Shown here: positions 3,667 to 47,236 of the stretch, piece after piece
Layout of the letters: the number at the start of each line of letters is the position of its first letter
Numbering within the stretch: the stretch's first letter is position 1
Assembly: GCA_024137785.1 (NCBI GenBank)
Contig: JAHRHZ010000095.1
Span: forward strand, 10,356,203 to 10,420,202
Reading direction: 5' to 3'
Origin: Ginglymostoma cirratum
Lineage: Eukaryota
Length of the DNA: 64,000 bases
Position numbers and translations under genes: made by a program
The notes under the pieces: model-generated
Told to the model about the DNA's origin: nothing
What the model saw: the letters and a program-made list of their open reading frames with translations, nothing else
Database searches by the model: none

Positions 3667-3760
3667 AAATAACAGTTGATTTATGAATGTACTGTTCTGT
3701 TTTTACATCGAATACAATCCTTTGCTAGTTGTAACATCTTGCTAATTTATTTTCCAACAG

Positions 3761-3844
3761 CTCCTGTATTACAATGAGGATATCCCTCTGCAGAAAGTCC
3801 TGGAGCAGATCAAAGAGAAACATAATATAACAAAAGCAAAGAAG
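3761..3844 (+). CDS. MYBBP1A: MYBBP1A exon (~3), LLYYNEDIPLQKVLEQIKEKHNITKAKK
   Basis: tttccaacag| acceptor, |gtgagt donor, 84 nt, phase 0-0. Confidence 0.92.
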
Positions 3845-4419
3845 GTGAGTGGCAGTATCTGATTCTCAATTGTACTTGGCCTTAAATGTAGCAACAGCAG
3901 CTGATGAAGAAGGAGCATGAAATTACTTTGAAAACTTGTTTAGTATGCCTGTAAACAGCACCCCAATGCAAACTGCTGGTTCAGGTTTCAGAAACAGCTG
4001 GGGTGATCTGAAGCAATTCAGAAAATATTGCAATTGAAAATTTCTTCAAGGATTGAACTTGCCATATTTTGCTTGATTTCTGACGTTTTTAGAGTCATGA
4101 AAAACTTCAAATTGGAAACCTATATACTGGATTATGTAGTTCAGAAGTAGACCATTCAGCCCAACTTAGGTCTCATTTAAATTTACCAGTTTGACCTTAG
4201 CTGACAAAATTATCTTTTCCCTTCTCCCCAAATACTTGTCTAGCTTTGCCTGAAATACATCTAAACTGTTTGATTAAACCACTTCTATGCTGGTGAATTT
4301 CACTTTCTTAACATTTTGTCATTGTAGAAGTTTCTTCTAGATTTACTGTTCGATTTCTTGGTGTTTATCTTACATTGATGGTCTTTAGTTATGTCTTCCC
4401 TGCAAGGATAAACCATAAG

Positions 4420-4930
4420 GTTTATTTATGTAGCATTTTAACTAAAGGTAAAGTCTCAAGGTACCCCACAGGAGTATTATAAAATGGAGGATGATACTGA
4501 GCCAAATAAGTAGACATTAGGTCAGCTAATCAAAGGTTTGGTCAAACAAGGAGGCTTTAAGGATTATCTCAAAGGAAGAAAATTGGGTGGAGAAGCGGAG
4601 AGGTTTCGGGAGGAACTGGAGGCACGAGAACCAATGGTGGATTGATTACAATTGAACACTTGCAAGAAGAGAATTAGAGGAGCGCAGATATCGCAGAGGA
4701 TCATGGTGTTGAAGAAGGTGACAGACACTGGAAGTAGCAGAGCCAGAGAGGAATTTGAAAACATGGATAAGCATTTTAAGATCAAGACATTGCTTGGCTC
4801 ACTCAAGACATTGCTTGGCTGTGAGCCAACATGAGTCATCAAGCAGACAATGATGGGAAAAGGGACTTGTTGCAAGTTAGTGTACAGGCACTAGCATTTA
4901 GGATGGCCTCCAGTTCATGTAGTGTAGTAA
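4420..4930 (-). mobile_element. L2-type LINE 3' fragment with internal 18 bp duplication (4782-4820)
   Basis: Similar to 17610-18230; tcaagacattgcttggct occurs twice. Confidence 0.5.
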
Positions 4931-5029
4931 GTAGAATATCTGTTTAAATACGGTTGATAGGGGTACTGTCAGACAATATTACGGCAATGGAAATAGGTAG
5001 CCCTAGTGATGGCATGAATATGAGGGATA

Positions 5030-5985
5030 GCAAACAGGGTCATGGTTAATGAATATTTTCCCTAGGAGTTGTTATTTGGACCCTTGTTTTTACAGATATA
5101 TAAATGATCTGGGTCCTGGGTGAATGGGGCAATTTCAAAGTCTGCAGACAGCACAAAATTATGAAGAATTCTGAACTGTGAGGCAACTGTGTAGAACTTT
5201 TAAAAAGACGTTGACAAGTTGGTGGAATGGGCAGATAGATGGTAGATCAAGTTCAATATGGAGAAGTTTGGGGTGAAACAGTATAAAATGAAAGGTACTC
5301 TTCTAATGGGTGTGCAGGAGTAGGGAAACCTGGGCGTATATGCTTAAGTCATTAAAAGTGACAGTGCAGGTAGAGAGTTGTTTAAAATAGCATGCGGTAT
5401 TCATAAATAGAAGCATATAGTACTCGATCAGGGAGGTTATGATTCACCTATAGAGGACACTAGTTAGACCTCAGCTAGCGTATCATGCATAGTTATGGAG
5501 GATGTGAATGTATTGGAAAGAGTACAGAGAGGTTTAGGAGAATGGTTCCAAGAGAAGACATTTCAGTATGCAGAAAGGTTGGGGAATATGAGACTTTTTT
5601 TTTCCCTTGGAGAGCAAAAGACTAAGGAGATTTGTTAGAGGTTTTCCAAATCATGACAGGTCTGGACATTGTAGGAAAATATTGTTCCCACTTGTAAAAA
5701 GATCACAAACCAGAGGGCACAGTTTTAAAGTGAAAGAAGCAAATGTGAGGTGAGAAAACACTTTAATACAGCAGCTTGTTACAGTCTGGAATGCAGTGCC
5801 TGGGAGGGTGGTGGAGGCAGGTTCAATTAGGCTTTCATGAGGGCTTTGGATGATTATTTAAATGGAATTAATGTGCAAGGTTATGGAAAACACAGGAGAT
5901 TGATACTAAATTAAAATACTAAGTTAAAAAGGCCAACAGAGACATGTTAGGCTAAATAGCTTACTTCCACGCCATACTAATTCTG
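5030..5985 (+). mobile_element. CR1 LINE RT/3' fragment (old, degenerate)
   Basis: Recognisable gttagacctcagct, gttcaatatggagaag, agagggcacagttttaaagtg and tggaatgcagtgcctggg segments in CR1 order. Confidence 0.75.
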
Positions 5986-6074
5986 TTTACTAAAAGTTTT
6001 ACTAAAACTAGTTCTGGAAGTTTATCTTGGAATCAGATGTAGCACAAAGGTTGCAAACCTATTTGGTTAACTTC

Positions 6075-6973
6075 GCTGTGGAGCTGGAGGAACACAGCAG
6101 GCCAGGCAGCATCAGAGGAGCAGGAAAGCTGACATTTCGACCTGAAACCATAAGACAGGAGTGGAAGTAAGGCCATTCGGCCCATCGAGTCCACTCCGCC
6201 ATTTAATCATGGCTGATGGGCATTTCACCTCCACTTACCCGCACTCTCCCCGTAGCCCTTGATTCCTTGCGAGATCAAGAATTTATCAATCTCTGCCTTG
6301 AAGACATTCAACGTCCCGGCCTCCACTGCGCTCCGCGGCAATGAATTCCACAGGCCCACCACTCTCTGGCTGAAGAAATGTCTCCTCATTTCCATTCTAA
6401 ATTGACCCCCTCTAATTCTAAGGCTGTGCCCACGGGTCCTAGTATCCCCACCTAACGGAAACCGCTTCCCAGCGTCCACCCTTTCTAAGCCATGCATTAT
6501 CTTGTAAGTTTCTATTAGATCTCCCCTCAACCTTCTAAACTCTAATGAATACAATCCCAGGATCCTCAGCCGTTCATCATATGTTAGGCCTACCATTCCA
6601 GGGATCATCCGTGTGAATCTCCGCTGGACACGCTCCAGTGCCAGTATCACCTTCCTGAGGTGTGGGGCCCAAAATTGGACACAGTATTCTAAATGGGGCC
6701 TAACTAGAGCTTTATAAAGTCTCAGAAGCACATCGCTGCTTTTATATTCCGACCCTCTTGAGATAAGTGACAACATTCCATTCACTTTCTTAATCACGGA
6801 CTCAACCTGCAAGTTAACCTTTAGAGAATCCTGTACTAGCACTCCCTGATCCCTTTGTACTTCGGCTTTATGAATTCAAAGCTTTCCTGCCCCTCTGATG
6901 CTGCCTGCCTGCTGTGTTCCTCCAGCTCCACACTGTGTTATCTCAGACTCCAGCACCGGCAGTTCTCACTATC
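6075..6973. mobile_element. Composite: inverted Penelope-like terminal repeats enclosing a CR1 fragment; 13 bp TSD
   Basis: Arms 6077-6130 and 6880-6932 are reverse complements (1 mismatch, 1 indel); TTTGGTTAACTTC flanks both sides (6062-6074, 6974-6986). Confidence 0.8.
6147..6877 (-). mobile_element. Young CR1 LINE 3' fragment with an uninterrupted 205-aa ORF2 C-terminus
   Basis: ORF 6225..6842 LYKALVRPHLEYCVQFWAPHLRK...FFSQRVVGLWNSLP; the same tail recurs at 28223-28303 ending in (tcttatgg)n. Confidence 0.92.
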
Positions 6974-7947
6974 TTTGGTTAACTTCAGACTGTTGCCAGG
7001 GAGAGGGATTGAGTTTGGAGTGATCAACAACTGGAATATTAATTGCGAATATTGCTTGGAGGGAATTTCTACTCATCCAATCCTGATGTCAAAGTAGCAA
7101 TTGAATGAGTTAAGCAACATTGCAGGTGACAAGAGAGTTAGTGGTGAAATGGAGCAGGTATGATGTGTCCATTGGCCAGAATCAGTACTGTTAAGACTCT
7201 GGTGGTAACCTGTTTTGTTAATTGCATCTGTTTTTAGTTTGTGTAAGCATCATTCTTTAGTTTTAGTGTTCAAAATACATGTTGTGCTTCTAATAATCCA
7301 TACTTCTCCATTCCAAAGCATTGATAGGTTCCAACCATTTACTCTGCTTTTCAAGATTAATTGTAAACTTAGGATGGAGGAGATTCTGTATTCATTTGGA
7401 GCGCTTATAGTATGTTTGCACACTGTGTCTTTGTTAGGATCTGTCAGAGACAATTGCAGAAAACTAGTGTTTTCAGATGTGACAATGTATTTGGTTTTGT
7501 CTTGTGAAATATTCATGCATGAATCCCCTCCCGATAAAGAAAAAGCAACAGTTCTCATTCAAGCATCTGGTATGGTTGGAACCTGCCTGGTAGGATCAGT
7601 ATTACCTAAGTCAGTTTTATTGGTTTGTGACATTAGATCCCTGTTACTGTGATTAATAGTTAAGATCAGAGTGAAAATCAACATTCTACAGAATAATCTA
7701 GTGAGAGTGAGTTGGACCTGGGCCTGGGCTCCACATGATATGATACTGTTTTTGTTTGCATAACTGACCATGTGATTGGTACTTGGGTATATCTAGAACA
7801 TGCTGGCGGATAGATTGTGTGGCAGGTCTCCAATGTTACCCACCAACAAGTTGATGCAACGGACATGACGGGAAGAATTAAATATACAACTGTCCAGAAA
7901 TCTAGCCCAACACTGGGTAACTCAGTTTGCTATATTTCGTCTTCCAG

Positions 7948-8022
7948 AAACTCATCAGGAATGCTGCATTTGGAAATCTCTTTGGTGTCTTGGCACTTTC
8001 GCAGTCAGGACGGCTCACAAAG
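7948..8022 (+). CDS. MYBBP1A: MYBBP1A exon (~4), KLIRNAAFGNLFGVLALSQSGRLTK
   Basis: cttccag| acceptor, |gtaaaa donor, 75 nt; conserved NLFGVLAL.QSGRL motif. Confidence 0.94.
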
Positions 8023-8388
8023 GTAAAATTCAACCTTTCTAAATGCCTCTGAGACAATGGATGACAGCTAATATGTGTGAACGAGTGTTTCAGATCCACT
8101 TAATGCTGCTTTTCTGAACCAGCCTTCGGTTGATGCAAATGCACATGATGTTTGTTTAATGAAGCAGAGAGATACTGCAGTGTATAATGGGTTCTGCAAT
8201 TCCAGTCATTATTTTTTGTGGAAGTGAAAGGATTTTGCTTTGATTCTCTGTAAAATTATGCTGTGAAATTCCAGCAAATGCCCAGTTTAATGTTTAACAA
8301 CCAGCCTAGTGATAATCCAGTATAAATCTCAGGGCTGCTGATTCAATGTAACAAGTTACCAAATTCAAATCTGCCAGACATTCTTAGT

Positions 8389-8482
8389 TAACAAGGTGTG
8401 GGGCTGGATGAACACAGCAGGCCAAGCAGCATCATAGGAGCAGGCAAGCTCGACGTTTCGGGCCTAGACCCTTCATCAGAAA
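8389..8482 (-). mobile_element. Short Penelope-like terminal repeat with intact hammerhead-like core (8452-8479)
   Basis: Minus strand reads CTGATGA-A-GGGTCTAGGCCC-GAAACGTC. Confidence 0.75.
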
Positions 8483-8618
8483 ATGTCATTTTAATGGCGG
8501 TGAATGGGCTAATCTTCATTGCTGTCTGAATGGTTAGTAAGTGGTTGGGAAGCAAGGCATTGAGGCAGATAGCTGTTTACTCTTCTAAGGGAGTTTAAGA
8601 TCATTATTTGGTTTCAGT

Positions 8619-9119
8619 GTCATTGGGGACTCCATAGTTTGGGGGACAGATAGGAGATTCTGTGGGAACGAGAGAGACTCGAGGTTGGTGTGTTGCCTCC
8701 CAGGTGCCAGGGTCCGTGATGTCTCGGATCGTGTTTTCGGGACCCTTAAAGGGGAGGGGGAGCAGCCCCAAGTCGTGGTCCACATAGGCACCAACGACAT
8801 AGGTAGGAAAAGGGATGGGGATGTAAGGCAGAAATACAAGGAGCTAGGGTGGAAGCTTAGAGCTAGAACAAGCAGAGTTGTTATCTCTGGTTTGTTACCT
8901 GTGCCACGTGCTAGCGAGGCGAGGAATAGAGGGAGAGAGCAGTTGAACACGTGGCTACACGGATGGTGCAGGAGGGAGGGATTCAGATACCTGGATAATT
9001 GGAGCTCATTCTGGGCTAGGTGGGACCTCTACAAATGGGATGGTCTACACCTGAACCAGAGGGGTACCAATATCCTGGGGGGGGGATTTGCTAATGCTCT
9101 TCGGGAGGGTTTAAACTAA
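8619..9119 (+). pseudogene. CR1 ORF1 C-terminal SGNH/GDSL esterase domain (uninterrupted, no native start codon)
   Basis: VIGDSIV (block I), LPGAR (II), HIGTNDI (III), DGLHL (V); stop after EGLN. Confidence 0.9.
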
Positions 9120-9183
9120 TTCAGCAGGGGCTTGGGAACCTGATTGTAGCTCCAGTGTACAGGAGGTTGAGAGTAGTGAGGTC

Positions 9184-11998
9184 ATGAATAAGGTTTCAAG
9201 GTCGCAGGAGTGTACTGGCAGGCAGGAACGTGGTTTGAAGTGTGTCTACTTCAACGCCAGGAGCATCCGGAATAAGGTGGGTGAACTTGCAGCATGGGTT
9301 GGTACCTGGGACTTTGATGTTGTGGCCATTTCGGAGACATGGATAGAGCATGGACAGGAATGGTTGTTGCAGGTTCTGGGGTTTAGATGTTTCAGCAAGA
9401 TCAGGGAAGGTGGTAAAAGAGAGGGAGGTGTGGCATTGTTAGTCAAGGATAGTATTACTGTGGTAGAAAGGACATTTGATGAGGACTCGTCTACTGAGGT
9501 AGTATGGGCTGAGGTTAGAAACAGGAAAGGAGAGGTCACCCTGTTGGGAGTTTTCTACAGGCCTCCGAAAAGTTCCAGAGATGTAGAGGAAAGGATTGCA
9601 AAGATGATTCTGGATAGGAGAGAAGGTAACAGGGTAGTTGTTATGGGGGACTTCAACTTTCCAAATATTGACTGGAAACGCTATAGTTCGAGTACTTTAG
9701 ATGGTTCAGTTTTTGTCCAATGTGTGCAGGAGGGTTTCCTGACACAGTATGTAGATAGGCCAACAAGAGGCGAGGCAACATTGGATTTGGTACTAAATAA
9801 TGAACCAGGCCAGGTGTTAGAATTGGAGGTAGGTGAGCACTTCAGTGATAGTGACCACAATTCGGTTACGTTTACTTTAGCGATGGAAAGGGATAGGTAT
9901 ATATTGCAGGGAAAGAGTTTTAGCTGGGGGAAAGGCAATTATGAGGCGATTAGGCAAGATTTAGGATGCATAGCATGGAGAAGGAAACTGCAAGGGCTGG
10001 GCACAATTGAAATGTGGAACTTGTTCAAGGAACAGCTACTGCATGTCCTTGATAAATATGTACCTATCAGGCAGGGAGGAAGCGGTCGAGCGAGGGAACC
10101 ATGGTTTACTAAAGAATCTCTTGTCAAGAGGAAGAAGGAGGCTTATGTAAAGATGAGGCGTGAAGGCTCAGTTAGGGCGCTTGAGAGTTACAAGTTAGCC
10201 AGGAAGGACCTAAAGAGAGAGCTAAGAATAGCCAGGAGGGAACATGAGAAGTCTTTGGCAGGTAGGATCAAGGAAAGCCCTAAAGCTTTCTATAGGTATG
10301 TCAGGAACAAAAGAATGACTAGAGTAAATTTAGGACCAGTCAAGGACAGTAGTGGGAAGTTGTGCGTGGAGTCCGAAGAGATAGGAGAGGCGCTAAATGA
10401 ATATTTTTCGTCAGTATTCACACATGAAAAAGACAATATTGTCAAGGAGGATGCTGAGATACAGGCTATTGGACTAGACAGGATTGAGGTTCACAAGGAG
10501 GAGGTGTTAGCAATTCTGGAAAGTGTGAAAATAGATAAGTCACCTGGGCCAGATGGGATTTATCCTTGGATTCTCTGGGAAGCTAGGGAGGAGATTGCAG
10601 AGCCTTTGGCTTTGATCTTTATGTCATCATTGTCTACAGGAATAGTGCCAGAAGTCTGGAGGATAGCAAATGTTGTCCCCTTGTTCACGTAGGGGAGTAG
10701 AGACAACCCTGGTAATTATAGACCAGTGAGCCTTACTTTGGTTGTGGGTAAAATGTTGGAAAGGATTGTAAGGGATAGGATTTATAATCATCTAGAAAGG
10801 AATAATTTGATTAGGGATAGTCAACACAGTTTTGTGAAGGGTAGGTCGTGCCTCTCAAACCTTATTGAGTTCTTTGAGAAGGTGACCAAACAGGTGGATG
10901 AGGGTGAAGCGGTTGATGTGGTGTATATGGATTTCAGTAAAGCGTTTGATAAGGTTCCCCACAGCAGGCTATTGCAGAAAATACGGAGGCATGGGATTGA
11001 GGGTGATTTAGTGGTTTAGATCAGAAATTGGCTAGCTGTAAGAAGACAGAGGGTGGTGGTTGATGGGAAATGTTCATCCTGGAGTTCAGTTAATAGTGGT
11101 GTACCACAAGGATCTGTTTTGGGTCCACTGCTGTTTGTCATTTCTATAAATGACCTGGATGAGGGTGTAGAAGGATGGGTTAGTAAATTTGCAGATGACA
11201 CTAAAGTCGGTGGAGTGGTGGATAGAGTGGAAGGATGTTGCAGGTTACAGAGGGACATAGATAAGCTACAGAGCTGGACTGAGAGGTGGCAAATGGAGTT
11301 TAATGCGGAAAAGTGTGAGGTGATTCTCTTTGGAAGGAGTAACAGGAATATAGAGTACAGGGCTAATGGTAAGATTCTTGGTAGTGTGGATTAGCAGAGA
11401 GATCTCGGTGTCCATGTGCATAGATCCCTGAAAGTTGCCACCCGGGTTGATAGGGTTGTTAGGAAGGCATACGGTGTGTTAGGTTTTATTGATAGAGGGA
11501 TTGAGTTTCGGAGCCGTGAGGTCATGTTGCAGCTGTACAAAACTCTGGTGCGGCCGCACTTGGAGTATTGCGTACAGTTCTGGTCACCGCATTATAGTAA
11601 GGATGTAGAAGCATTGGAAAGTGTGCAGAGGAGATTTACCAGGATGTTGCCTGGTCTGGAGCGAAGGTCTTATGAGGAAAGGCTGAGGGACTTGAGGCTG
11701 TTTTCGTTAGGAGAGAAGAAGGTTAAGAGGTGATTTAATAGAGACCTACAAGGTGATCAGAGGATTAGATAAGGTGGACAGTGAGAGCCTTTTTCCTCAG
11801 ATGGTGATGGCTAGCACGAGGGAACATAGCCTTAAATTGAGGGGTGATAGATATAGGACAGATAGCAGACATAGGTTCTTTACTCAGAGAGTAGTAAAGG
11901 CATGGAATGCCCTGCCTGCAACAGTAGTAGACTTGGCAACTTTAAGGGCATTTAAATGGTCATTGGATAAACATATGGATGATGAGGGAATAGTATAG
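9184..11998 (+). pseudogene. CR1 ORF2 (APE endonuclease + reverse transcriptase), disrupted
   Basis: APE motifs YFNARS, ISETW, YRPP, GDFN, LDL, SDH; RT motifs YRPVSL, DFSKAFD, GVPQGSVLGP, FADD; in-frame TAG at 10690, 11017 and 11392; +1 frameshift near 11710. Confidence 0.95.
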
Positions 11999-13252
11999 GT
12001 TATATGGGCTTCAGATTGGTTTCACAGGTCGGCGCAACATCGAGGGCCGAAGGGCCTGTACTGCGCTGTAATGTTCTATGTACTCACCTAAATTCCGTTA
12101 GTGTTACTGTTATTGCGGATTGCATTTGCCATTTTTTAAATCAAGATCAATTTTACTTGCATTATTCTTGCATTATTCTATCAGAATGGTAGAAGGGTTT
12201 CAGTAAAGTGCTTAACCAGGGATATTTAGGGGTCATAACAGTAAAAATCATAACATGCACAATGGAATTCCTAAATTCCCAACGCTTTATCCTTCTGAAC
12301 CCACTGCTTCTAATCTCCAGTTTTTTGTTCTACGCTCCTGAAGCCTTTTTGGAATTTTCTTGTACATTAAAGTTCTTGCAAACTCGTGTGATCTGTTGTG
12401 GGGCCCTCCATCAGTTACATGGAAGACTCTCATCAATTAAGTGCATTATGACAGAGAAGGCATTAAATTTAGATTGAAAGCAAAAAAGAGAGAGGAAGGA
12501 ACCAACAAGAATGAAAACAAAAGAAAATAAATGTTGATCATAAGTAAAAGTGCTCATAAACCTTTAAGATTGTCATTACAAATCCATCTGGTTGAATAAT
12601 GTCCTTCAAGGAAGGAAACCCCCTATGAATGCCCTTGTGCAACTCTAGTCCCTCACCATTGGTGCCCTTTCTGTCCTTAGATACAGGTACCTGCTGCCAT
12701 CAATTCTTAACCTCATCTAACTTTTTTTTTTGTGGCATCTACTCATTCTAACTTGTTTCCTGTGATCCGTGCCTACTCTTCCAGGGCTTGTGCTGTGTGG
12801 ACCACTTCTCCTTGTCTCCTCTCAGTTCCACCTTTAACTCGGTCATTATGCCCCACTGTCACTTAAATCATGCTAAATTACCACAGCCTGACATCTATTC
12901 TTTGTCCTTCCCTGTTGCTCCCCCTGTCAGCACAGCACCGGTTTTATAATAGTGACCAAACCCTATAGTTTGTCTGTTTCCTCTTCTCCATTATCTTTTC
13001 ATAGTTGCGTACTCTGCCAGTTTTCATCATGTTTTCTGAAGATACTTTCTCATTGCCTCATTCACGCATGTTTTTGGTACATGGCCTTGCGTGCACGTGT
13101 CTAATTAATTATATGTTGTAATTCAGTTGTGGCATGATTGGCAAAATGGCTGGTTTTTCTTGGGGTTTGGGGCTGTAATGATGTGTTGGTCTTGTTAACT
13201 TAATTTACTTGTGTGCAACAAGATGAAGTGTTTCAAAATTGTTTGTTGCTAG

Positions 13253-15230: not shown

Positions 15231-15615
15231 GTAAGGGGCATCACTGATAAATCCAATGAAGAACTTCTTCGCCCATAGAATGATTATAACGTGGAACTTG
15301 CCACCATGAGGGGCAATTGTCATAATCAGTATAGATCCATTTAAGTGGATCTATACTTAATATGATGGATGTACAGACGGTTGTGCTGATTGAGTTGAGT
15401 GAAGTTGGATGGGGAGAAGGCTTGTACACACTAGTGCTGTTGCAATGCCATAAATTCTATGCCACTTGGCTGAATTATCAAAGAATTATTTACCTTATCT
15501 GAGGAAATAAATGACCTCTTGAAAGAATGTGTTACATTGGCAAAAAAGTAGTAAATTAATAGTGCAGGATGGTACATAGCATTCATTCTTGAATTACCAC
15601 TTTGTATTGCTGCAG

Positions 15616-18468: not shown

Positions 18469-19184
18469 TTTTAACATGTCCAGTCTAGTCTTTTTCTAGC
18501 CTGTATGTCCCAGTGCCAAATAGGTCTCCTGGTCTAGAACAGGCAGGGAAGGGAGAGCTTTAGAATAATTCTTCTTTGTTCTCTGAGAAACTAGTGGTTA
18601 AATATACAGTGAAGGTGATGTCTAAGTTGTGACATCCTGTAGGTTTTGTGACCTACAAACCAGTGCCTTGTGTATCAATGCATTTGCTATTTGCTGTCCA
18701 GTATAAAATTCATCAAGCCAACTTTCAAACTCATGTCTCCAATGAGCTAACTATATTGAATGCTGTGTTACAAAGCCTGTTGTTGTTCATTTCATGGCTT
18801 AGGGAGCAATGCACGTCAACCTGTGCACAAAAAAGCCTGATTTTTCTTTTAAAAGTATGTGCTGTCAACCAGTGTGAGATGTGACTTTGCTGATTTGTTT
18901 TCTTTTAAATGCATGTCGCCTCTAGTTTCCAGGAAAAGTAGAGTGCCAGGGTGTTTGTAGATCTCCTGGCCATATTAAGTCGGTCTATTTCAGACAGTTG
19001 TTTGGGCTCAACTTCTGTGCATGCTGTTTGTTTCATAGCATTGTTGAGTGTACTTTTGTTAGAAATCAATTATAGCAGAGGATTTGAAAACTTGCATCTT
19101 TCAGAACCGCTGTACTAAGATATATTTCCTCACTTGAAAGGTTAATTTATTAGTGGTTAACTTATGAGACATTCATAAATATTG

Positions 19185-19500
19185 TGGAACTAATCAGGTC
19201 AGGCAGCGGACAATGGGAGTGGAAGGCAGAGCTACCGTTTCAAGTCAGTGACCTTTCATCAAACATCGAAGAAACTGCGGTAACAGGTTTTAAGCAAGTA
19301 CAAGGGGACAGGATTTCATAGCACCCTTTCACCCTATCGCTGGCCTTGCTTTTTGGTCTGAAAGCGCCAATCCCACACCCAGCTCCTCCCACCTTTCCGG
19401 ATCTGTACTTGGCCTAAAACCTTTCATCTCTCATTTTGTCCAGTTCTGACGTAAGGTTATTAACCTGACATGTTGGCTATCTTTCTCCATTGGCCAACTA
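19185..19500. mobile_element. Head-to-head pair of old Penelope-like terminal repeats
   Basis: aggttttaagcaagtaca (19285-19302) pairs with tgtacttggcctaaaacct (19404-19422); decayed cores on both arms. Confidence 0.5.
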
Positions 19501-19795
19501 GCTATTGTTTGCATCTGCTTAACTTGTTTTTACATCAGAAACTTTAAAATGTGGCTTTCCAATTAAACTACTCAGTAGCTATTTTTGCTTGCAGTTTTGT
19601 GTTAAGTGATGGTATTGGCTTTGCAATATATTTCACTTTTAAAACCCTGTCAAATGTTTCGCTGGCCATTGATTATTGTGGGCTAGTCACATTCACAAGT
19701 GCCTTGACTGTGGGTGATGGGGTCTGTACTTTCACGCATAGAAGACATACCAAAGCTGGATGGTCCCCACTACCAAGTGAGTGCATTTGATGTAA

Positions 19796-20015
19796 GAACA
19801 GAAAGTGCTGGAGAAATTCAGCAGGTCTGGCAACATTTATGGAAAGATGAAATGACTTAGCCTGCACTATAACGCTTCTTCAGAACTGAATTTAGGTTTG
19901 CTCTTTGATTCGAAAGGAGAGTCATATTGAACCCATAGATGCTGCCAGACTTGGCAAGTTTCTCCAGCACAGTTTGTTTTCACTTCTGATCTCCCACATT
20001 GCATTATTTTGCTTT
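19796..20015. mobile_element. Head-to-head pair of Penelope-like terminal repeats
   Basis: 19805-19842 is approximately the reverse complement of 19933-19970. Confidence 0.6.
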
Positions 20016-20477: not shown

Positions 20478-21370
20478 GTCATACGGCACGGAAACAGACC
20501 CTTCAGTTCAAGCAGTCCATACCAAAAGTATTCCCAAACTAAACTAGTTGCACCTGCCTGCTTCGGACCCATATCCCTCCAAACCCTTCCTATTCATGTA
20601 CTTCTTCAAATCCCTTTTAAACATTGTAATTGCGTCCATATCTACCATTTCCTGAGGAAGTTCATTCCACATACAAACTACCGTCTGTGTAAAAGATTTG
20701 CCCCCTTTTTTTTTTTAAAATCTCTCCCCCCTCACCTTGAAAAAATGCTCCTTAGTCTTGAAATCCCGCATCATAGGGAAAAGACACCTGCCATTAACCC
20801 TATCTATATTCCTCATCATTTTATAAACTTCTATAAGGTAACCTTTCGACCTCCTCCGCTCCAGTGAAAAAAGTCTCAGCCTATCCAGCCTTTCCTTATA
20901 ACTCAAACCTTCCAGACCTGGCAACATCTTTGTAAATCTCTTCTGAACCCTCTCCAGTTTGATAATATCCTTCCTATAACCGGGCAACCAGAACTGAACA
21001 CAGTATTCCAGAAGAGGCCTCACCAATGTCTTGTACACCTCAACACTCAAAGGACTGACAAATGAAAGCAAGCGTGCTAAATGCCTTTTTAACCACCCTG
21101 TCTATATGTGATGCAAACTTCAAAGAATTTTGTACCTGCACCCCTAGGTCCCTCTGCCTTACAACACTTCCCTAGGCCCTACCATTAATTGTGTAAGTCC
21201 TGCTGCTGTTTGTTTACCAAAATGCAACGCTTCACATTTATCCACATTGAATTCCATCTGCCATTTTTCAGTCCATTGACACATTTGATCAAGATCCCTC
21301 TTCTAATCTTAGAAAACCTTCTTCACTGTCTGTTGTGCTACTAGTTTCCCTGTCATCCGCAAACTGACTA
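20478..21370 (-). mobile_element. CR1 LINE 3' fragment
   Basis: ORF 20715..21071 YKTLVRPLLEYCVQFWLPGYRKDIIKLERVQKRFT. Confidence 0.9.
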
Positions 21371-28100: not shown

Positions 28101-28222
28101 TTGTTCCTGGGTAAGTAATCTATTTTTGTATAGTTTTATGCCCACATCCTTGAGTTTGGGTTTAAGGCAGGCTAGTTGAGAAGAAGGCAAGGTCAAGAAC
28201 TCTCTTCAGGCTTGGGCTTATG

Positions 28223-28303
28223 CCCATCAGCCATGATTAAATGGCAGAGTGGATGGCCGAATGGCCTTACTTCCACTCCTTTGTCTTATGGTCTTATGGT
28301 CTT
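28223..28303 (+). mobile_element. Short CR1 3' tail
   Basis: Matches the end of the 6147-6877 element; terminates in tcttatggtcttatggtctta. Confidence 0.75.
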
Positions 28304-30477
28304 ATTTTTAACACGGTTTATTACAAAGTAAGACTAAATATTATGGTTTATGACAATCAGAGATGTACCAGGCTCTCATCTTAATGTTATGTTAGCTAAA
28401 GACTGTTTGATGAACTCCACTACCTAATGTTAGTCAACCCATGCTCGATGTGTTTAGAAAGTTTACGCAGCTAGTCTTCAAGCTTCTGCCCAGCTCTTGA
28501 TGTGTGTTTCTTGCTTGTTTTTCTTAATTCCGTGTCCACTGTTCTATTTATGTCCAATGAGGAGCAGCTCCATTGCATCATCACAAGGTTCCTCCGGGGA
28601 CCTGAAGCCTTTGCACAACAAGTAACTCTGTTCATGTCCTTTTATTTGATGTCTTCACTTCCTCCATTTCTGTAATCTTCTCCAGCTGTACAGCTTTCTG
28701 CAAAGTCTATACTCCTCAATTTCAGGCTTCTTGAGCATCTTGAGTTTTAATTGCTTCACCTTTGACAACATATCACCAACTTCAAGGCTTTGATATCTGA
28801 AATTCTCTCCTCCTTTTTCCTCCTTTGAGTGCTCCTTGACATCTCCCTCTTAAACGAAGAAACCAAAAGGTGAGAAGCTGGCCTGAAGACCATTGAAATA
28901 GCCGAGTGAACTGCGAGGAAACCCTAGTTTTCAGTGCAGTGCTGTACTGCAGAAGTGGGGCTTACGACGACTTGCTGTCAGTCATTTAAAATTCCCGCTT
29001 CTTTGAGCACTCAAATTTTGAGTGGGTAAAGGATGACCTCTGTCCCAAATGCAGCCTCCTGATTGAACTTTTTCACAACTACGTGTGTATTTGGAGCGCA
29101 TGAAAACATGCAAGCCCATACTTCACACGATGCAGAAATTGTCACTTTAAAATTCTGTATTTCCCTCCAGTGAAGTATTGCAGTAAATCTACCCAAAGTG
29201 CCCCTCGAAACCACCTTCCAGTCCACTTTGTTGCCTTTGTCACCCATTGACTCTCTTGGTCTCTTTCTCGATGTGCTAACTCTCCCTCTCACTGCATCCT
29301 GCTGCTTGCTCACCTCATCTACTGTGCATTCCCCACTGCCCCACTTGCCAATGCACACTTTGTCATTCCTGTTTTGTCCACTCACAATTAGTACATTAAT
29401 GAGTTGCACCAATCTTGGAAGTTTATAATGCTTGCATTTTTCAAACTGTTCAACATTCCAGCATTGCTCCCTTGCTGTGGTGAGGCTTCTGGGTGCAGCA
29501 AGAAATTTTTTAAAAACTTGTCCTTTCAAAGCAACATTCACAACCTCAAGATATCCCAAAGTACTTTTGAACTGTAGCCGCAGTAGTAATGTGGGAAACA
29601 ACCAGTGCAATGTTGGTCATGGGATATAGATTGGCTAACAGCGTTGCATACCTTCAGTGCCAGTTTAAGTATTGTGTTCATTTTTTGGAGTGGAGCTACT
29701 GCTAAGCCAAAGCTAGCAAGTTGCTTAATGTAAAAAGGAGTGTATAATCTATGGAGGAAAGTAACTCGTGCACAAAGACGTTAATTTCATTTGCAGTCAA
29801 GTCTCACCCGACACTGATGGCCAGATAAACAATCTGGGGCCAAGCATAACAGCCACAGAGAAGGGAGTGAGTTTGAAAAGGAATTTGTTCAGGCCCAGAA
29901 CATGGATTCTTTGACACTTCTTGCCAGCCCCTAATTGTATAACCATTGCCTTGCTGCTTCTGTATGAGGCAAATACTCACCCATGTAATTGGACTGTTGC
30001 TGGTCTTACAATAAAAGCACCCTGGGCTCAACTGGCTGACCTTTTGCATTAAGTGCTGCTCCAGGAAGTCATCTCTATTTTGTGGCTATGTAGAGGCCTA
30101 CATTAACTGAACTTGTGGTTTATTTTTAACTGCCGACTGTCCCGTAAGCTGCATTACACTTTTCTTCACAACTTTATTTTTTAACTGCACTGAGCAGTTT
30201 GAATAGTTGTATAGTAGAAGTAAGTACAAAATTCTGTGGTTCTGTTGGATAGAAGAAATTTTTTTTTCAAAAAAAGGGGCTCCAGAGTTGACAAAGTCCC
30301 TCAGTTTAAGACCTGAAGTCTTCAGTTTCTTTTCCAGTCAACCAAAGGTTCAGCTGTGCAGACTGGCCCAAAGAAATGGTTCCAATTTCTGCTGTGGTCT
30401 GTAGGTGGAATGGAGTGTAGTAGTGAGCAGAGCAGCTCTGCAGTAATACGTCCCATGTGGGTTTTTTTAAAAAATCA

Positions 30478-31252: not shown

Positions 31253-31539
31253 GTGCCAGACAGGTTCAAGTTTGCACCAGAAATGGAGACCTACGTTGAC
31301 TCCTTTCTTGAAAGCACCCAGGATGCTGAGAAGCAGTTCACAGTAATTACCAAGTTCTCGTGCCTCACTAACCAGGGTTACCCTGTGATTCCTAGCTATT
31401 GGAAAGTGATCCGTCACTTACAGCCCTCAGTTTTATTGAACTATGTCAATTGGCTGAAAAATATGTTCATTAATCCAGACCTTGAAGCCTGCTTGGATTT
31501 CAGCACCAAACGACAAGAGGACAAGCAACGACCTGGCCT
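31253..31539 (+). CDS. MYBBP1A: MYBBP1A exon (~9), VPDRFKFAPEMETYV...LDFSTKRQEDKQRPG
   Basis: ctctttcag| acceptor, CT|gtaagt donor, 287 nt, phase 0-2. Confidence 0.95.
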
Positions 31540-31552
31540 GTAAGTTGTGCAG

Positions 31553-32200
31553 TAGTGATTGATTTTGTCATGTGTAGCGAAATACAGTGAAAAGCTTTGT
31601 TTACAGCAGTACAGGCAGATCACAGCAAGCAAAGGATGTACAGATCAAAAAGACTTAGAGGCATTGCAGGTTACAGTATTGAGACTAGAGTCCGTTCAAC
31701 AGTCTGATAACGTTCGGAAAGAAGCAGTTCCTCAACCTGCTCGTGCGTGTGTTCAGGCTTCTGTATCTTCTGCCTGACGGAAGAGTCTGTAAGAGGTCAT
31801 TACCGGGGTGTGATGGGTCTTTGATGTTGGTCACCTTTCTGTGGCAGTGAGCCATGTAAATAGAGTCCATGGATGAAAGGTTGGCTTCCATGATGGGTGT
31901 GGTGTGCCCAGCCCAGACACCTTCTGTAGTTTCTTTCTGTCGGGCAGAGCAGTTTCCGCATCCGGACAGTACGCTTTCAGTGGTGCATCTGTAGAAGTTG
32001 GTGAGGGACCTTATGGACATGCCAAATTTCCTGAGCCGCTTGAGGAAGAAGAGGCACTGTTGTACCTTCTTGGCTGTCGCACTTACATGGGATGTCCAGG
32101 ACAGGTCGTTGGTTATCGTCATTCTGAGGAACTTGACCCTCTTCACTCTCTCAGCCTCAGTTCTGTTGATGTAGATGGGGGTATGTTCACTGGACCACCC
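31553..32200 (-). mobile_element. Rex1/Babar-type LINE 3' fragment
   Basis: ORF 31685..32203 KFLRMTITNDLSWTSH..AKKVQQCLFFLKRLRKFG..LPSGRRYRSLNTRTSRLRNCFFP. Confidence 0.85.
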
Positions 32201-33539
32201 CATAATACCACATTTAAACAGGAGATGCCACTAGATGACTGCAGAGCCAAGCTTGCTATTGGCATGAAGTCCTGTGACTGTCTCAGTTTGGATCATTCAA
32301 GAGGGATCATTCTCTCCTCCAGCCGTTCACATCGCTGAGATAACACACTTGTCTAACTCTGGCTGTTTCACCATAACCAGGTTCAGCCACGCTGTCAGTT
32401 ATTAGTCCCAAACAGGGTGACCAGCTCTCAGTTAAGAAAATAAGCAGCAGCTTGGTCAGGCCATGGGAGGCTGGGGTATAGGGGATGGGATTGTTGTTGA
32501 GACCCCTGGATTAAACCATTCATGAGTGCATCTGCATGTGCATGAATATCAAAGATCAATTGAAGAGAGTCAGATGAAGTGATGTGGCAGCTGTGCCGTC
32601 AACATAAAGTCATCTAAAACCAAATAAGTCATTTGTATATCTGATCAATTCAAATTTCAGACTCCCTGTAATACGTACCTATGTTCAAACTGATGAAGGA
32701 TGCAGAAAAATCAGATTGGAGGAGTCAGAATTCCTAATTGAGATCAAATTTTATTGAGTGTTTGGTTCAAAAGTAAGAAACCATCCCACCCCCCAGATTG
32801 TAAGATGGTAGATAAAATCAAAGCCAGTTAGTTAACCTGGCCCCAAGCTCCCAAATACCAATCCTACAATTTACCACCTCTCTCCACTGTTCCTTGCTTC
32901 CCTCCGTAAAGGCAGGATGTCCCAATGTGCGGCTGAGGAGCCCAAGGCACGCAGCCTTTCCCCCACCCCTCTACCTCTTCCTCCTACTTGGGGGTTGAGA
33001 CAGATTTCAAGTCCCAAAATAAGGTCATGGGAGTAACAAAAACAGAAATTGCTGGAAAAGCTCGGCAAGTCTGCCAGCATCTCTGGAGAGAAATCAGGGT
33101 TAACGCATCCCATAAGACTATGGAGGCCGAGTTGTCTATATTTAACAAAGAAATTCATTTTGCAATACTGAAGGCATCAAGGGGTATGGGGAGAACTCAA
33201 AAATGTGACATTGGAGGTGGGTGTTCATATTATCAATAATCATATTGACTGAAAGGAGCAGACTTGATCGGCTGAATGGCCTGCTGCTATTCCTGTTTTC
33301 TACATTGCTAAAGAGGGGTATGGCACATCAGATGCCCCTTTACACCTCAGCTAATTATCTTTGCCGTAATTTCAAAATGGGTGGTGAAAACAAAATGGCC
33401 AGCTGGTGCCTTTTTTTGCCCCCTTGCAAACCTTGGAACCTACTGTAGTTAATCGTAAATGAACAGCATGGATTTTAAATTCAGCCAAGCTGAGAAAGGT
33501 GTATGTATAAGAGGCTTGAAGATGCAATGAACAGGGTGG

Positions 33540-36954: not shown

Positions 36955-37510
36955 CATTAGTCATTCATGGGACAGTGGGTTTTGCTGGCATTTGTTGCTT
37001 GCCCCTAATTGCCCTTGATCTGGGTGGCTTACCATTTCAGAGGGCAGGCAATCACATTGCTAGGGGTTTCAAGTTGCATGTAGTCAGCCTGGATGGCAAA
37101 GGCAGGTATTCTTGCCCAAAGGATGTTAGCAAACCAGATAAAGCAAAGAATTGTGGATGCTGAACATCTGAAACAAGAGCAGAAGTTGCTGGAAAAGCTC
37201 AGCAGATCTGGCAGCATCTGGGGAGAAAGAAGCAGAGTTAACATTTAGAATCCAATGATCCTTTCGAAAAAGATGCTACCAGATGTGCTGAGTTTCTTCA
37301 GCAATTTCTGTTGTTGTTAGTGAACCAGATTGATTGTTGTTTTAAAAAAAAATTGTCATCATGGTCACTGTTATGGAAACTTGTTATATATTCCAATTTT
37401 ATGAATAGATTTTAAATTCCACTGGTGTTTGTGATGGGATTTGAACCCATTTCCTCAGAGCATTAACTTCAGCCTCTGCATTAGTAGTCCAGTGATTTTA
37501 ACACTACACC
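36955..37510 (-). mobile_element. tRNA-derived SINE interrupted by an inverted Penelope-like repeat pair (37140-37314)
   Basis: SINE halves match 45405-45761; the insert is flanked by a 16 bp TSD. Confidence 0.7.
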
Positions 37511-45012: not shown

Positions 45013-45282
45013 GGAATCCTACAGTGTGGAAGCAGGCCGCTCAGCCCATCAAGACCACACTCCCCTCTGAAGAGCATCCCACCCAGACCCATCCTACCCC
45101 CATAATTCCCATGGCTGATCCACCTAGCCTGCACATCCCTGCTCTCTTAAGCATGGCCAATCCACCTAACCTGCGCATCCTTGGACTATGGGAGGAAACC
45201 AGAGCACCCTGAGGAAACCGAGGAACTGCAGACACGGGGAAAAGGTACACACTGCACACAGGCAGTTGCCTGAGGGTGGAAT
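45013..45282 (-). mobile_element. HE1-like SINE (partial)
   Basis: Same motifs as 30478-30730 (gccaatccacctaacctg, ggactatgggaggaaaccagagcaccc). Confidence 0.75.
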
Positions 45283-45761: not shown

Positions 45762-47047
45762 TGCCAGTGCTCCCCCAATGTATGTGCTTTTGTCTGAGTT
45801 TTATCTTCTATTCCCCCTCGCCATTCTTTGTTTCTCCAGGAAGTTTTGGAAATGTACTATAATGTGTTTGCATATTTCAGTGCTGTCAATAGGATTTTCA
45901 TTGCTGTGCAAGACTAATACTATAGAACCTTACAATTATTAGAGGACGGAGTGCTTTTTGATCTATCATGATGATTCTTTCAAGCAATCCAAAATTAGTC
46001 TCAGTGGACCCAGAGGGCTGCCTTCTATGCTGTATGTCTCTATGACTGTGAAAAATCAATACAGGACCGTCAGTCAGGCTCGGTATGGCACACTTCACAT
46101 ACTGGAAGCTGCATGTATCAGTACAGAGGTTGCCGTTCTTTGCAGTCAGAAACAACATGTAAATAGTTTTCTGCAATTTTCTGATTTATTTCTCCAGGCA
46201 GTGCCTTGACCAATCAGAATCAATTTATCTGGTTTAAAATTTGAACAGTTTGACAGCTAACTGAGAGTCATCATCTAACTGGTGTATTCTCAATGACAAC
46301 ATGACTACCAAGCAGAGTTCACTTGTTCTTCTCCTCTTGTACTGTATGAAAGTTATTTTCCATTTATATTAGCATTTCTTGTGAATTGTTCTGATGAATG
46401 CAAGAAAAAAAACCTTGAACAACTTTTTTTCTTCAGTGGTACTCAAAAGAAATGCCAGTTGACAGTAGTATGGATTTTGGCTTTCCAAGCTGGGATTGTG
46501 TCTGGTGGGTGTTTTTTTTGAGCTGTGCAGACCAGAATAGTTGTAGATCAACCAAAATATACAGCACTAAATCTCGTATCTATATTTTAAAAATAATTAG
46601 TCTATTTTGACCTAGGGATGGGTCTGTGTAAACTGCTTTCTTTCTGCTAACTCACCTCACTGAGCTGTGAATGAACCTAAATAATACATGTCTGTTCTGT
46701 GAACGTTTTAAAGTTCCACCAAAATTGTCACTGTAGTAGTCATACTAGACAGGCTAATGAGGCTAAAGGCAAACATGACCCCTGGCCCTGCTGACTTGCA
46801 TCCTAGAATCCTAAAAGAGGTAGCTTCAGAGATAGTGGGTGTATTGGCTGCAAATTTCCAAGAGGATGAATCACAAGTCAGACTTAGGGTGTATTGCAAT
46901 ATAGGTGCTCTGAGAGTGGTTCTGACCTTCAGTGATCGAAGCTGGGTGCTTCATATTTTAGCACTGAAAGCTTAAAAAAAAAATGCGTTTCCACAAATCT
47001 GTATCTCATGTCATTAATCATGAACTGGGTGCATTTGAAAGAAAGAA

Positions 47048-47236
47048 AGATGTGCAGGTTAGGTGGATTGGCCATGCTAGATTGCCCAAAGTTTCCAAGC
47101 CTGTGTAGGCTGGGTGAATCAACCATGGGAAATGCAGGCTTACAGGGATAAGGTGGATGTGGGTGGGATGCTCGTCAGAGGGTCGGTGTGGACTCGGTGG
47201 GCCAAATGGCCTGTTTCCACATTGTAGGGATTCTAT
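47048..47236 (+). mobile_element. HE1-like SINE 3' half
   Basis: agatgtgcaggttaggtggattggccatgcta...ggcctgtttccacattgtagggattctatga. Confidence 0.75.

Follow-up and report, generated by a model that had tools for sequence, protein, structure and literature searches.

Among elements of the Penelope type, an inverted, 5'-truncated copy with a tail of 30-40 bp at one end is a described arrangement, going by excerpts of one account (PMC8557442), and the available sections of another report inverted pseudo-LTRs with target duplications of 8-10 bp, a 31-bp tail and palindromes at the inverted junctions (PMC3846280). Excerpts of a third tie the tail to two start sites of the reverse transcriptase (RT), with cleavage and extension on both strands (PMC11167929), and minimal Penelope-like hammerheads without helix III appear in the available portion of PMC6155905. 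For CR1/L2 LINEs, the accessible part of PMC4245944 gives peaks of duplication length at 3-5 bp, from earlier work cited there, together with junctions that are blunt or slightly truncated and in many cases carry additional nucleotides at the 5' end; 5' junctions with 1-2 bp of microhomology or extra bases are described in a section of PMC4760211. In the whale shark, introns are rich in both CR1-clade LINEs and Penelope-like elements, according to the available text of 10.1101/443036.

Here we describe an intronic locus of Ginglymostoma cirratum at which the two kinds of element are combined. All positions refer to the 64-kb stretch of DNA that was analysed, called the window below. A 5'-truncated LINE of CR1 type is enclosed by the arms of a Penelope-like inverted insertion, and the geometry of the junctions, from which alone the order of events is read, makes it very probable that this is sequential nesting, the Penelope-like unit having come first and CR1 later. 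The nested unit lies in an intron of MYBBP1A, a plus-strand gene most of which falls within the window: the whale shark MYBBP1A protein gives 21 exon-like matches from 2008 to 57741 at 70-100% identity, with the exon at 31256-31504 reaching 99%. The intron spans approximately 3845 to 7944 (plus strand), between exons at 3758-3844 and 7945-8022 that were located by tblastn with the whale shark and bamboo shark proteins. Elsewhere in the gene, an intron carries a plus-strand H/ACA snoRNA of the SNORA50 family (49455-49591), which scores above the Rfam gathering cut-off, and just below an exon a minus-strand frame (31688-32230) matches Pfam ALKBH8_N and is likely to be the 3' end of another LINE-type repeat. 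The window also holds opposite-orientation copies of a further repeat, presumably a SINE, at 45063-45182 and 47046-47182 (about 1.9 kb apart), and an imperfect 46-bp palindrome without a loop at 15320-15365.

The outer boundaries of the nested unit are marked by a 13-bp target site duplication (6062-6074 and 6974-6986, read on the plus strand), already given in an earlier note on this DNA, which we attribute to the Penelope-like insertion. The two copies are identical, the exact match extends no further, and the 13-mer occurs nowhere else in the window. Two unmatched bases (6075-6076) separate the left copy from the left arm (6077-6139, minus strand), an inverted, 5'-truncated pseudo-LTR without a tail that is identical at 59 of 63 positions to a family copy at 58628-58690. 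This arm ends in stem II of the hammerhead; its GAAA and cleavage triplet are uninterrupted, and it carries one CpG transition. The right, sense arm resumes beyond CR1 at 6880-6939 (plus strand) and is followed by a 34-nt tail (6940-6973, plus strand) that has no counterpart on the left; together they match 87 of 94 positions of the family copy at 58587-58681. Aligned over 54 columns, the arms proper (6077-6130 and 6880-6932) differ at two and are 96% identical, so the Penelope-like inverted arms of about 54 bp that had been proposed are indeed present. So is the proposed extension of the right arm to 6973: it measures 41 nt, matches family copy 58587, and leaves the left arm 41 nt short of the equivalent point. 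We set the family tail at 34 nt because the copies at about 1168 and 8390 stop at the position corresponding to 6939, whereas copy 58587, which has the full tail, and the right arm both reach the equivalent of 6973.

In each arm the break falls within stem II, where the Penelope inversion point lies. The earlier note held that the hammerhead cores were mostly missing, which is right for the CUGANGA strand, absent from both arms, but not for GAAAC and the cleavage triplet, which remain on both sides. Neither arm encodes a complete hammerhead, and neither the Penelope-like nor the CR1 part is mobile on its own. The minimal motif can be recognised through the three closest relatives of the arms (1162-1260, 8382-8482 and 58587-58712), in each of which a pattern scan found CTGAnGA-stem-GAAAC-nTC (at 1257, 8479 and 58709); the nested copy retains its 3' half only. 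Scanned against Rfam at E<=1, the window as a whole matched no hammerhead family, and such a scan is uninformative for minimal Penelope hammerheads.

The identity of the parent element comes from copy 58587, which runs on into a broken ORF remnant (58587-59134). With stops read as X, this remnant matches 25 of 31 candidate proteins at 71-86% identity, and Pfam GIY-YIG was found at E<=0.05 in five of the nine proteins scanned, one of them above the curated cut-off. Since the relatives of the remnant match GIY-YIG, the arms can be assigned, indirectly and by way of this sister copy, to an endonuclease-bearing Penelope-like element of which they are pseudo-LTR pieces. A HMMER search with a second-frame remnant of the same copy gave two matches and added nothing, the ORF at 58801-59208 matched no Pfam family, and no RT of the arm family was found in the window. 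The locus thus resembles Penelope/Poseidon-type, endonuclease-bearing elements, as far as the excerpts of PMC8557442, PMC3846280 and PMC11167929 describe them, in its inverted 5'-truncated copy, in a tail confined to one side (34 nt, within the described range of 30-40), in its target duplication around the whole inverted unit, in the palindrome at the inversion junction, in its minimal hammerhead and in a parent ORF that ends in GIY-YIG. It differs from those examples in consisting of two pseudo-LTR stubs with no ORF and in being interrupted by CR1, and its 13-bp duplication compares with 8-10 bp in the examples given in the available sections of PMC3846280.

Further Penelope-like copies in the window can be described alongside. 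The one at 58587-59165 is a 5'-truncated member of the arm family with a broken GIY-YIG C-terminal remnant and an intact minimal hammerhead pattern; an inversion hairpin within it (59093-59158) is the source of weak Rfam microRNA matches. Solo pseudo-LTRs also occur. One, at 1157-1277, measures about 100 bp, has a complete hammerhead pattern and comes with an 11-bp duplication; another, at 8382-8484, shows no decay of its hammerhead pattern, yielded no exact duplication and lies some 100 bp upstream of a long CR1. That long CR1-type LINE (8589-12082, plus strand) is near full length; its ORF1 survives as a GDSL-esterase remnant, and its APE-RT ORF2 is split over several frames. Older Penelope-like pseudo-LTRs form more inverted arrangements at 19184-19492 and 19785-20015. 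A search for exact duplications of 6 bp or more around five intervals found them for two, the nested unit and 1162-1265, and found none at 8385, 19785 or 18335. By eye, we spotted a 15-bp duplication with two mismatches (37125/37316) around the inverted pair at 37125-37330, which belongs to an older Penelope-like family, contains no CR1 and has a tail on its left side only; one copy of the duplication reads CA where the other reads TG, as decay of one CpG on opposite strands would produce.

The inner element is a CR1-type LINE on the minus strand (6147-6875; a start at 6149, giving 727 bp, serves equally) that comprises the last 216 codons of ORF2, the stop, a short 3' UTR and one tail unit. 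The minus-strand frame at 6228-6875 runs for 216 codons without a stop and is identical at 188 of 215 residues (87%) to P0005, a full-length ORF2 with APE and RT (Pfam Exo_endo_phos and RVT_1). The first codon of this homology is precisely 6873-6875, and the 5' end of CR1 is thereby placed independently of the arms. At the other end, 70 of 71 aligned bases, with three gaps, are identical to a sister copy at 28220-28305, in which an 8-nt unit is repeated to form the tail. The fragment itself matched no Pfam family, and its identity was taken from its relatives; the name CR1 is our assumption from bird, turtle and shark relatives among the protein matches, none of which is named CR1 there. Short tandem-repeat 3' tails and 5' truncation are features of CR1-clade LINEs, and both are present here, the former as the 8-nt unit repeated in the sister copy and the latter as the break at 6875. 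The fragment also resembles CR1-clade LINEs of cartilaginous fish in its APE and RT ORF2 relative and in having no long target duplication, with short microhomology and extra bases at its junctions instead. Its CpG observed/expected ratio reaches 0.59, compared with 0.26 across the window, so that the earlier description of a young CR1 3' end is fair; 20 CpG remain, and CpG decay could explain three of the 27 residues at which the fragment differs from P0005. Compared with CR1-clade LINEs the element itself is unremarkable, and it is the landing site, in a hammerhead remnant, that deserves notice.

How the two elements meet on the left decides much of the interpretation. The match of the left arm to its three relatives stops at 6138-6139 and the match to the CR1 tail begins at 6147, leaving eight bases (6139-6146) to be assigned. 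These are one edit away from the sense hammerhead, three from a CR1 tail unit and five from the antisense continuation of the left arm, and for this reason we place the inversion axis at G6139, inside the self-complementary stem II, with the sense arm beginning there. The bases before the CR1 tail, which had been parsed as left-arm sequence, are instead the start of the sense arm (6139-6148, plus strand), namely the 3' side of stem II followed by GAAAC, with G6139 common to both arms and 6147-6148 common to GAAAC and the CR1 tail. The single edit is a CpG transition, and the same change occurs in hammerhead copies at 1233-1242 and 59513-59522. Among random 8-mers of the window, 55 of 60,000 came within one edit at any of the five end positions. 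An exact GACCYGAAAC is found in the window at this junction and in the intact hammerhead at 58685-58694 only, a pattern that was chosen after both had been seen. The decisive stretch amounts to just seven or eight bases, parsed after the fact, and the chance of a misparse is raised by the 4-mer GACC, which is common to the CR1 tail and stem II.

By this parse CR1 sits about 10 nt beside the axis and splits the sense arm between GAAAC and the cleavage triplet. The suggestion that CR1 had entered an existing inverted pair therefore keeps its order of events, but not its geometry, which put CR1 at the axis and had it delete the centre. A version that retains that geometry takes 6140-6146 as a decayed CR1 tail unit and has the central hammerhead cores deleted. 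It would account for the loss of the CUGANGA strand from both arms, and the shared GACC makes a decayed tail unit less unlikely than the random null suggests. However, it needs three edits in eight nucleotides where the sense hammerhead needs one CpG transition, a change seen identically in the two further hammerhead copies, and this in a tail unit that adjoins a CR1 3' end matching its sister at 70 of 71 bases (three gaps); we regard it as highly improbable.

The right-hand junction is equally tight. The sense arm resumes at 6876-6880, within 4 nt beyond CR1, and when CR1 is removed in silico it aligns continuously with the family copy. The junction bases (6876-6879, plus strand) can be read as TC of the cleavage triplet plus two extra A, or as four filler bases; the family sequence is not exactly restored. 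Four choices of excision point score nearly equally (164-168) and imply a loss of 1-3 nt and a gain of 2-4 nt. Folded without CR1, the 172-nt unit forms a single hairpin whose loop lies at the axis, the tail remaining unpaired with the left arm. A short duplication made by CR1 itself, with AAA on both sides, is not preferred, as it requires a prior deletion and filler. We also rejected a right arm that started at the cleavage site through self-cleavage of the RNA, since 10 nt of upstream hammerhead lie beyond CR1; the observation, reported in excerpts of PMC11167929, that uncleaved RNA serves as the chief substrate in vitro counts against such an origin as well.

Resumption of the outer element at the point of interruption is a mark of nesting, and it bears on whether the whole unit could have integrated in one event, a template switch between the two RNAs having been among the earlier suggestions. 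In such an event a CR1 RNP, or a template-jumping Penelope RT, would extend an unfinished intermediate, and CR1 cDNA would be built in during joining. There is something to be said for this: during joining a free 3' end would be present at the axis, just 10 nt from the 3' end of CR1, both arms and CR1 are young, and the left arm points the same way as CR1, a feature of the LINE template-switch chimeras in the available part of PMC4476161, while tripartite chimeras within one duplication are on record in the excerpted text of PMC2104539. As in those U6/L1 and tripartite chimeras, to the extent that these partial sources describe them, several RNA-derived parts lie within one duplication and the second part is complete to its 3' end. 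The likeness ends at the junctions, where, unlike in the chimeras, the Penelope arm resumes and a 10-nt sense piece stands between the left arm and CR1. A simple jump from Penelope to CR1 RNA predicts a left arm set directly on the CR1 tail, which is not observed; to arrive at the observed structure, synthesis would have to change to the sense strand for 10 nt, then jump precisely to the 3' end of CR1 and finally come back to within 4 nt of where it had left off. The 10-nt piece and the return come free with a later insertion and so count against a single event, and tripartite structures can also arise from two independent insertions, according to the same portion of PMC4476161. We therefore consider integration in one event improbable.

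That single duplication enclosing the whole unit also invites another proposal, namely that the arm-CR1-arm structure was copied from another locus as a non-autonomous element, either by Penelope proteins or in the manner of a MITE; in the accessible sections of PMC3846280, Penelope pseudo-LTRs are able to move unrelated DNA enclosed by them, which then acquires a target duplication. Against such composite mobility stands the left arm, whose GAAA-x-GTC is uninterrupted, so that its template would have had no CR1. The structure is present once in the 64-kb window, as is each of its junctions, a weak test, and a transposase family match was found in none of the seven ORFs scanned of the 31 listed. 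MITEs are short, non-coding, non-autonomous DNA transposons with inverted repeats near both ends and a target duplication. Here, by contrast, the repeats are retroelement pseudo-LTRs, and on the right they are not terminal, 41 nt separating the arm from the duplication, for which reason the label MITE-like, given to the unit earlier, does not fit. Transposition of the composite is in our judgement extremely unlikely.

Sequential nesting remains the reading we favour by a wide measure of confidence, and a rough proposal can be made for its steps. A GIY-YIG endonuclease would make a staggered cut that gives rise to the 13-bp duplication; two cDNAs begun at different points near the 3' region of the RNA would leave the tail on one side, and could be joined at the self-complementary stem II. 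The likely product of the Penelope step is an inverted pair of pseudo-LTRs of about 172 bp with a 13-bp duplication and a one-sided tail, for which the pair with tail at 37125-37330 offers a CR1-free comparison. Later, and likely independently, CR1 would have inserted into the sense arm 10 bases from the axis, perhaps primed on the 3' end of GAAAC through the 2-nt microhomology of its tail, and after about 727 nt it would have been truncated and joined at the cost of 1-3 nt and with 2-4 nt added. The 13-bp duplication fits the Penelope event better because CR1/L2 LINEs make 3-5 bp duplications or blunt joins, and the near-blunt inner junctions fit the CR1 event because such LINEs give blunt joins, short truncations and extra 5' nucleotides.

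An encounter of this kind is to be expected by chance. The window contains 16 merged CR1 ORF2-like intervals and 16 matches to a Penelope-like pseudo-LTR profile, one of them probably spurious (20907-20932, E 0.29) and excluded from the base count; with Penelope DNA at about 3% of the window, roughly 0.5 nested cases per window would be expected. A more specific relationship can be imagined, in which the CR1 family homes to Penelope hammerheads: its tail is partly complementary to the strand of stem II and GAAAC (GACC and AC are shared), which could favour priming there and split ribozymes repeatedly, perhaps on unfinished Penelope integration intermediates. Of 12 CR1/SINE-type 3' motifs in the window, only that of the nested CR1 itself falls within Penelope DNA, and the copy of the same family at 28220-28305 is not near Penelope DNA; a non-exhaustive literature search found no report of CR1 enrichment at Penelope hammerheads or of Penelope/CR1 co-integration in sharks. 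We think homing unlikely.

The prediction that the arms would form dsRNA in the pre-mRNA holds as a prediction. In plus-strand RNA of 6062-6986 the arms pair in both the MFE and the centroid fold (z -10.4 against 20 shuffles), giving a predicted intronic duplex of about 54 bp. There are, however, 12 inverted pairs of at least 22 nt within 3 kb of each other in the window, the one at 19785-20015 (no exact duplication found) among them; the duplex belongs to this background, is therefore not special, and implies no function.

In summary, a CR1 fragment in a standard inverted Penelope pseudo-LTR insertion is of an already known kind and ordinary. The locus can be used in teaching to show what an inverted Penelope insertion looks like, here with its axis in stem II of the hammerhead, and how a nested LINE can make a Penelope inverted unit resemble a MITE. 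Genome-wide enrichment of CR1 at the GAAAC of hammerheads, or a repeated occurrence of the junction pair, would point to cross-class targeting or to co-integration of Penelope and LINE elements. If the insertions prove to be polymorphic, they may provide a two-step phylogenetic marker for carpet sharks.
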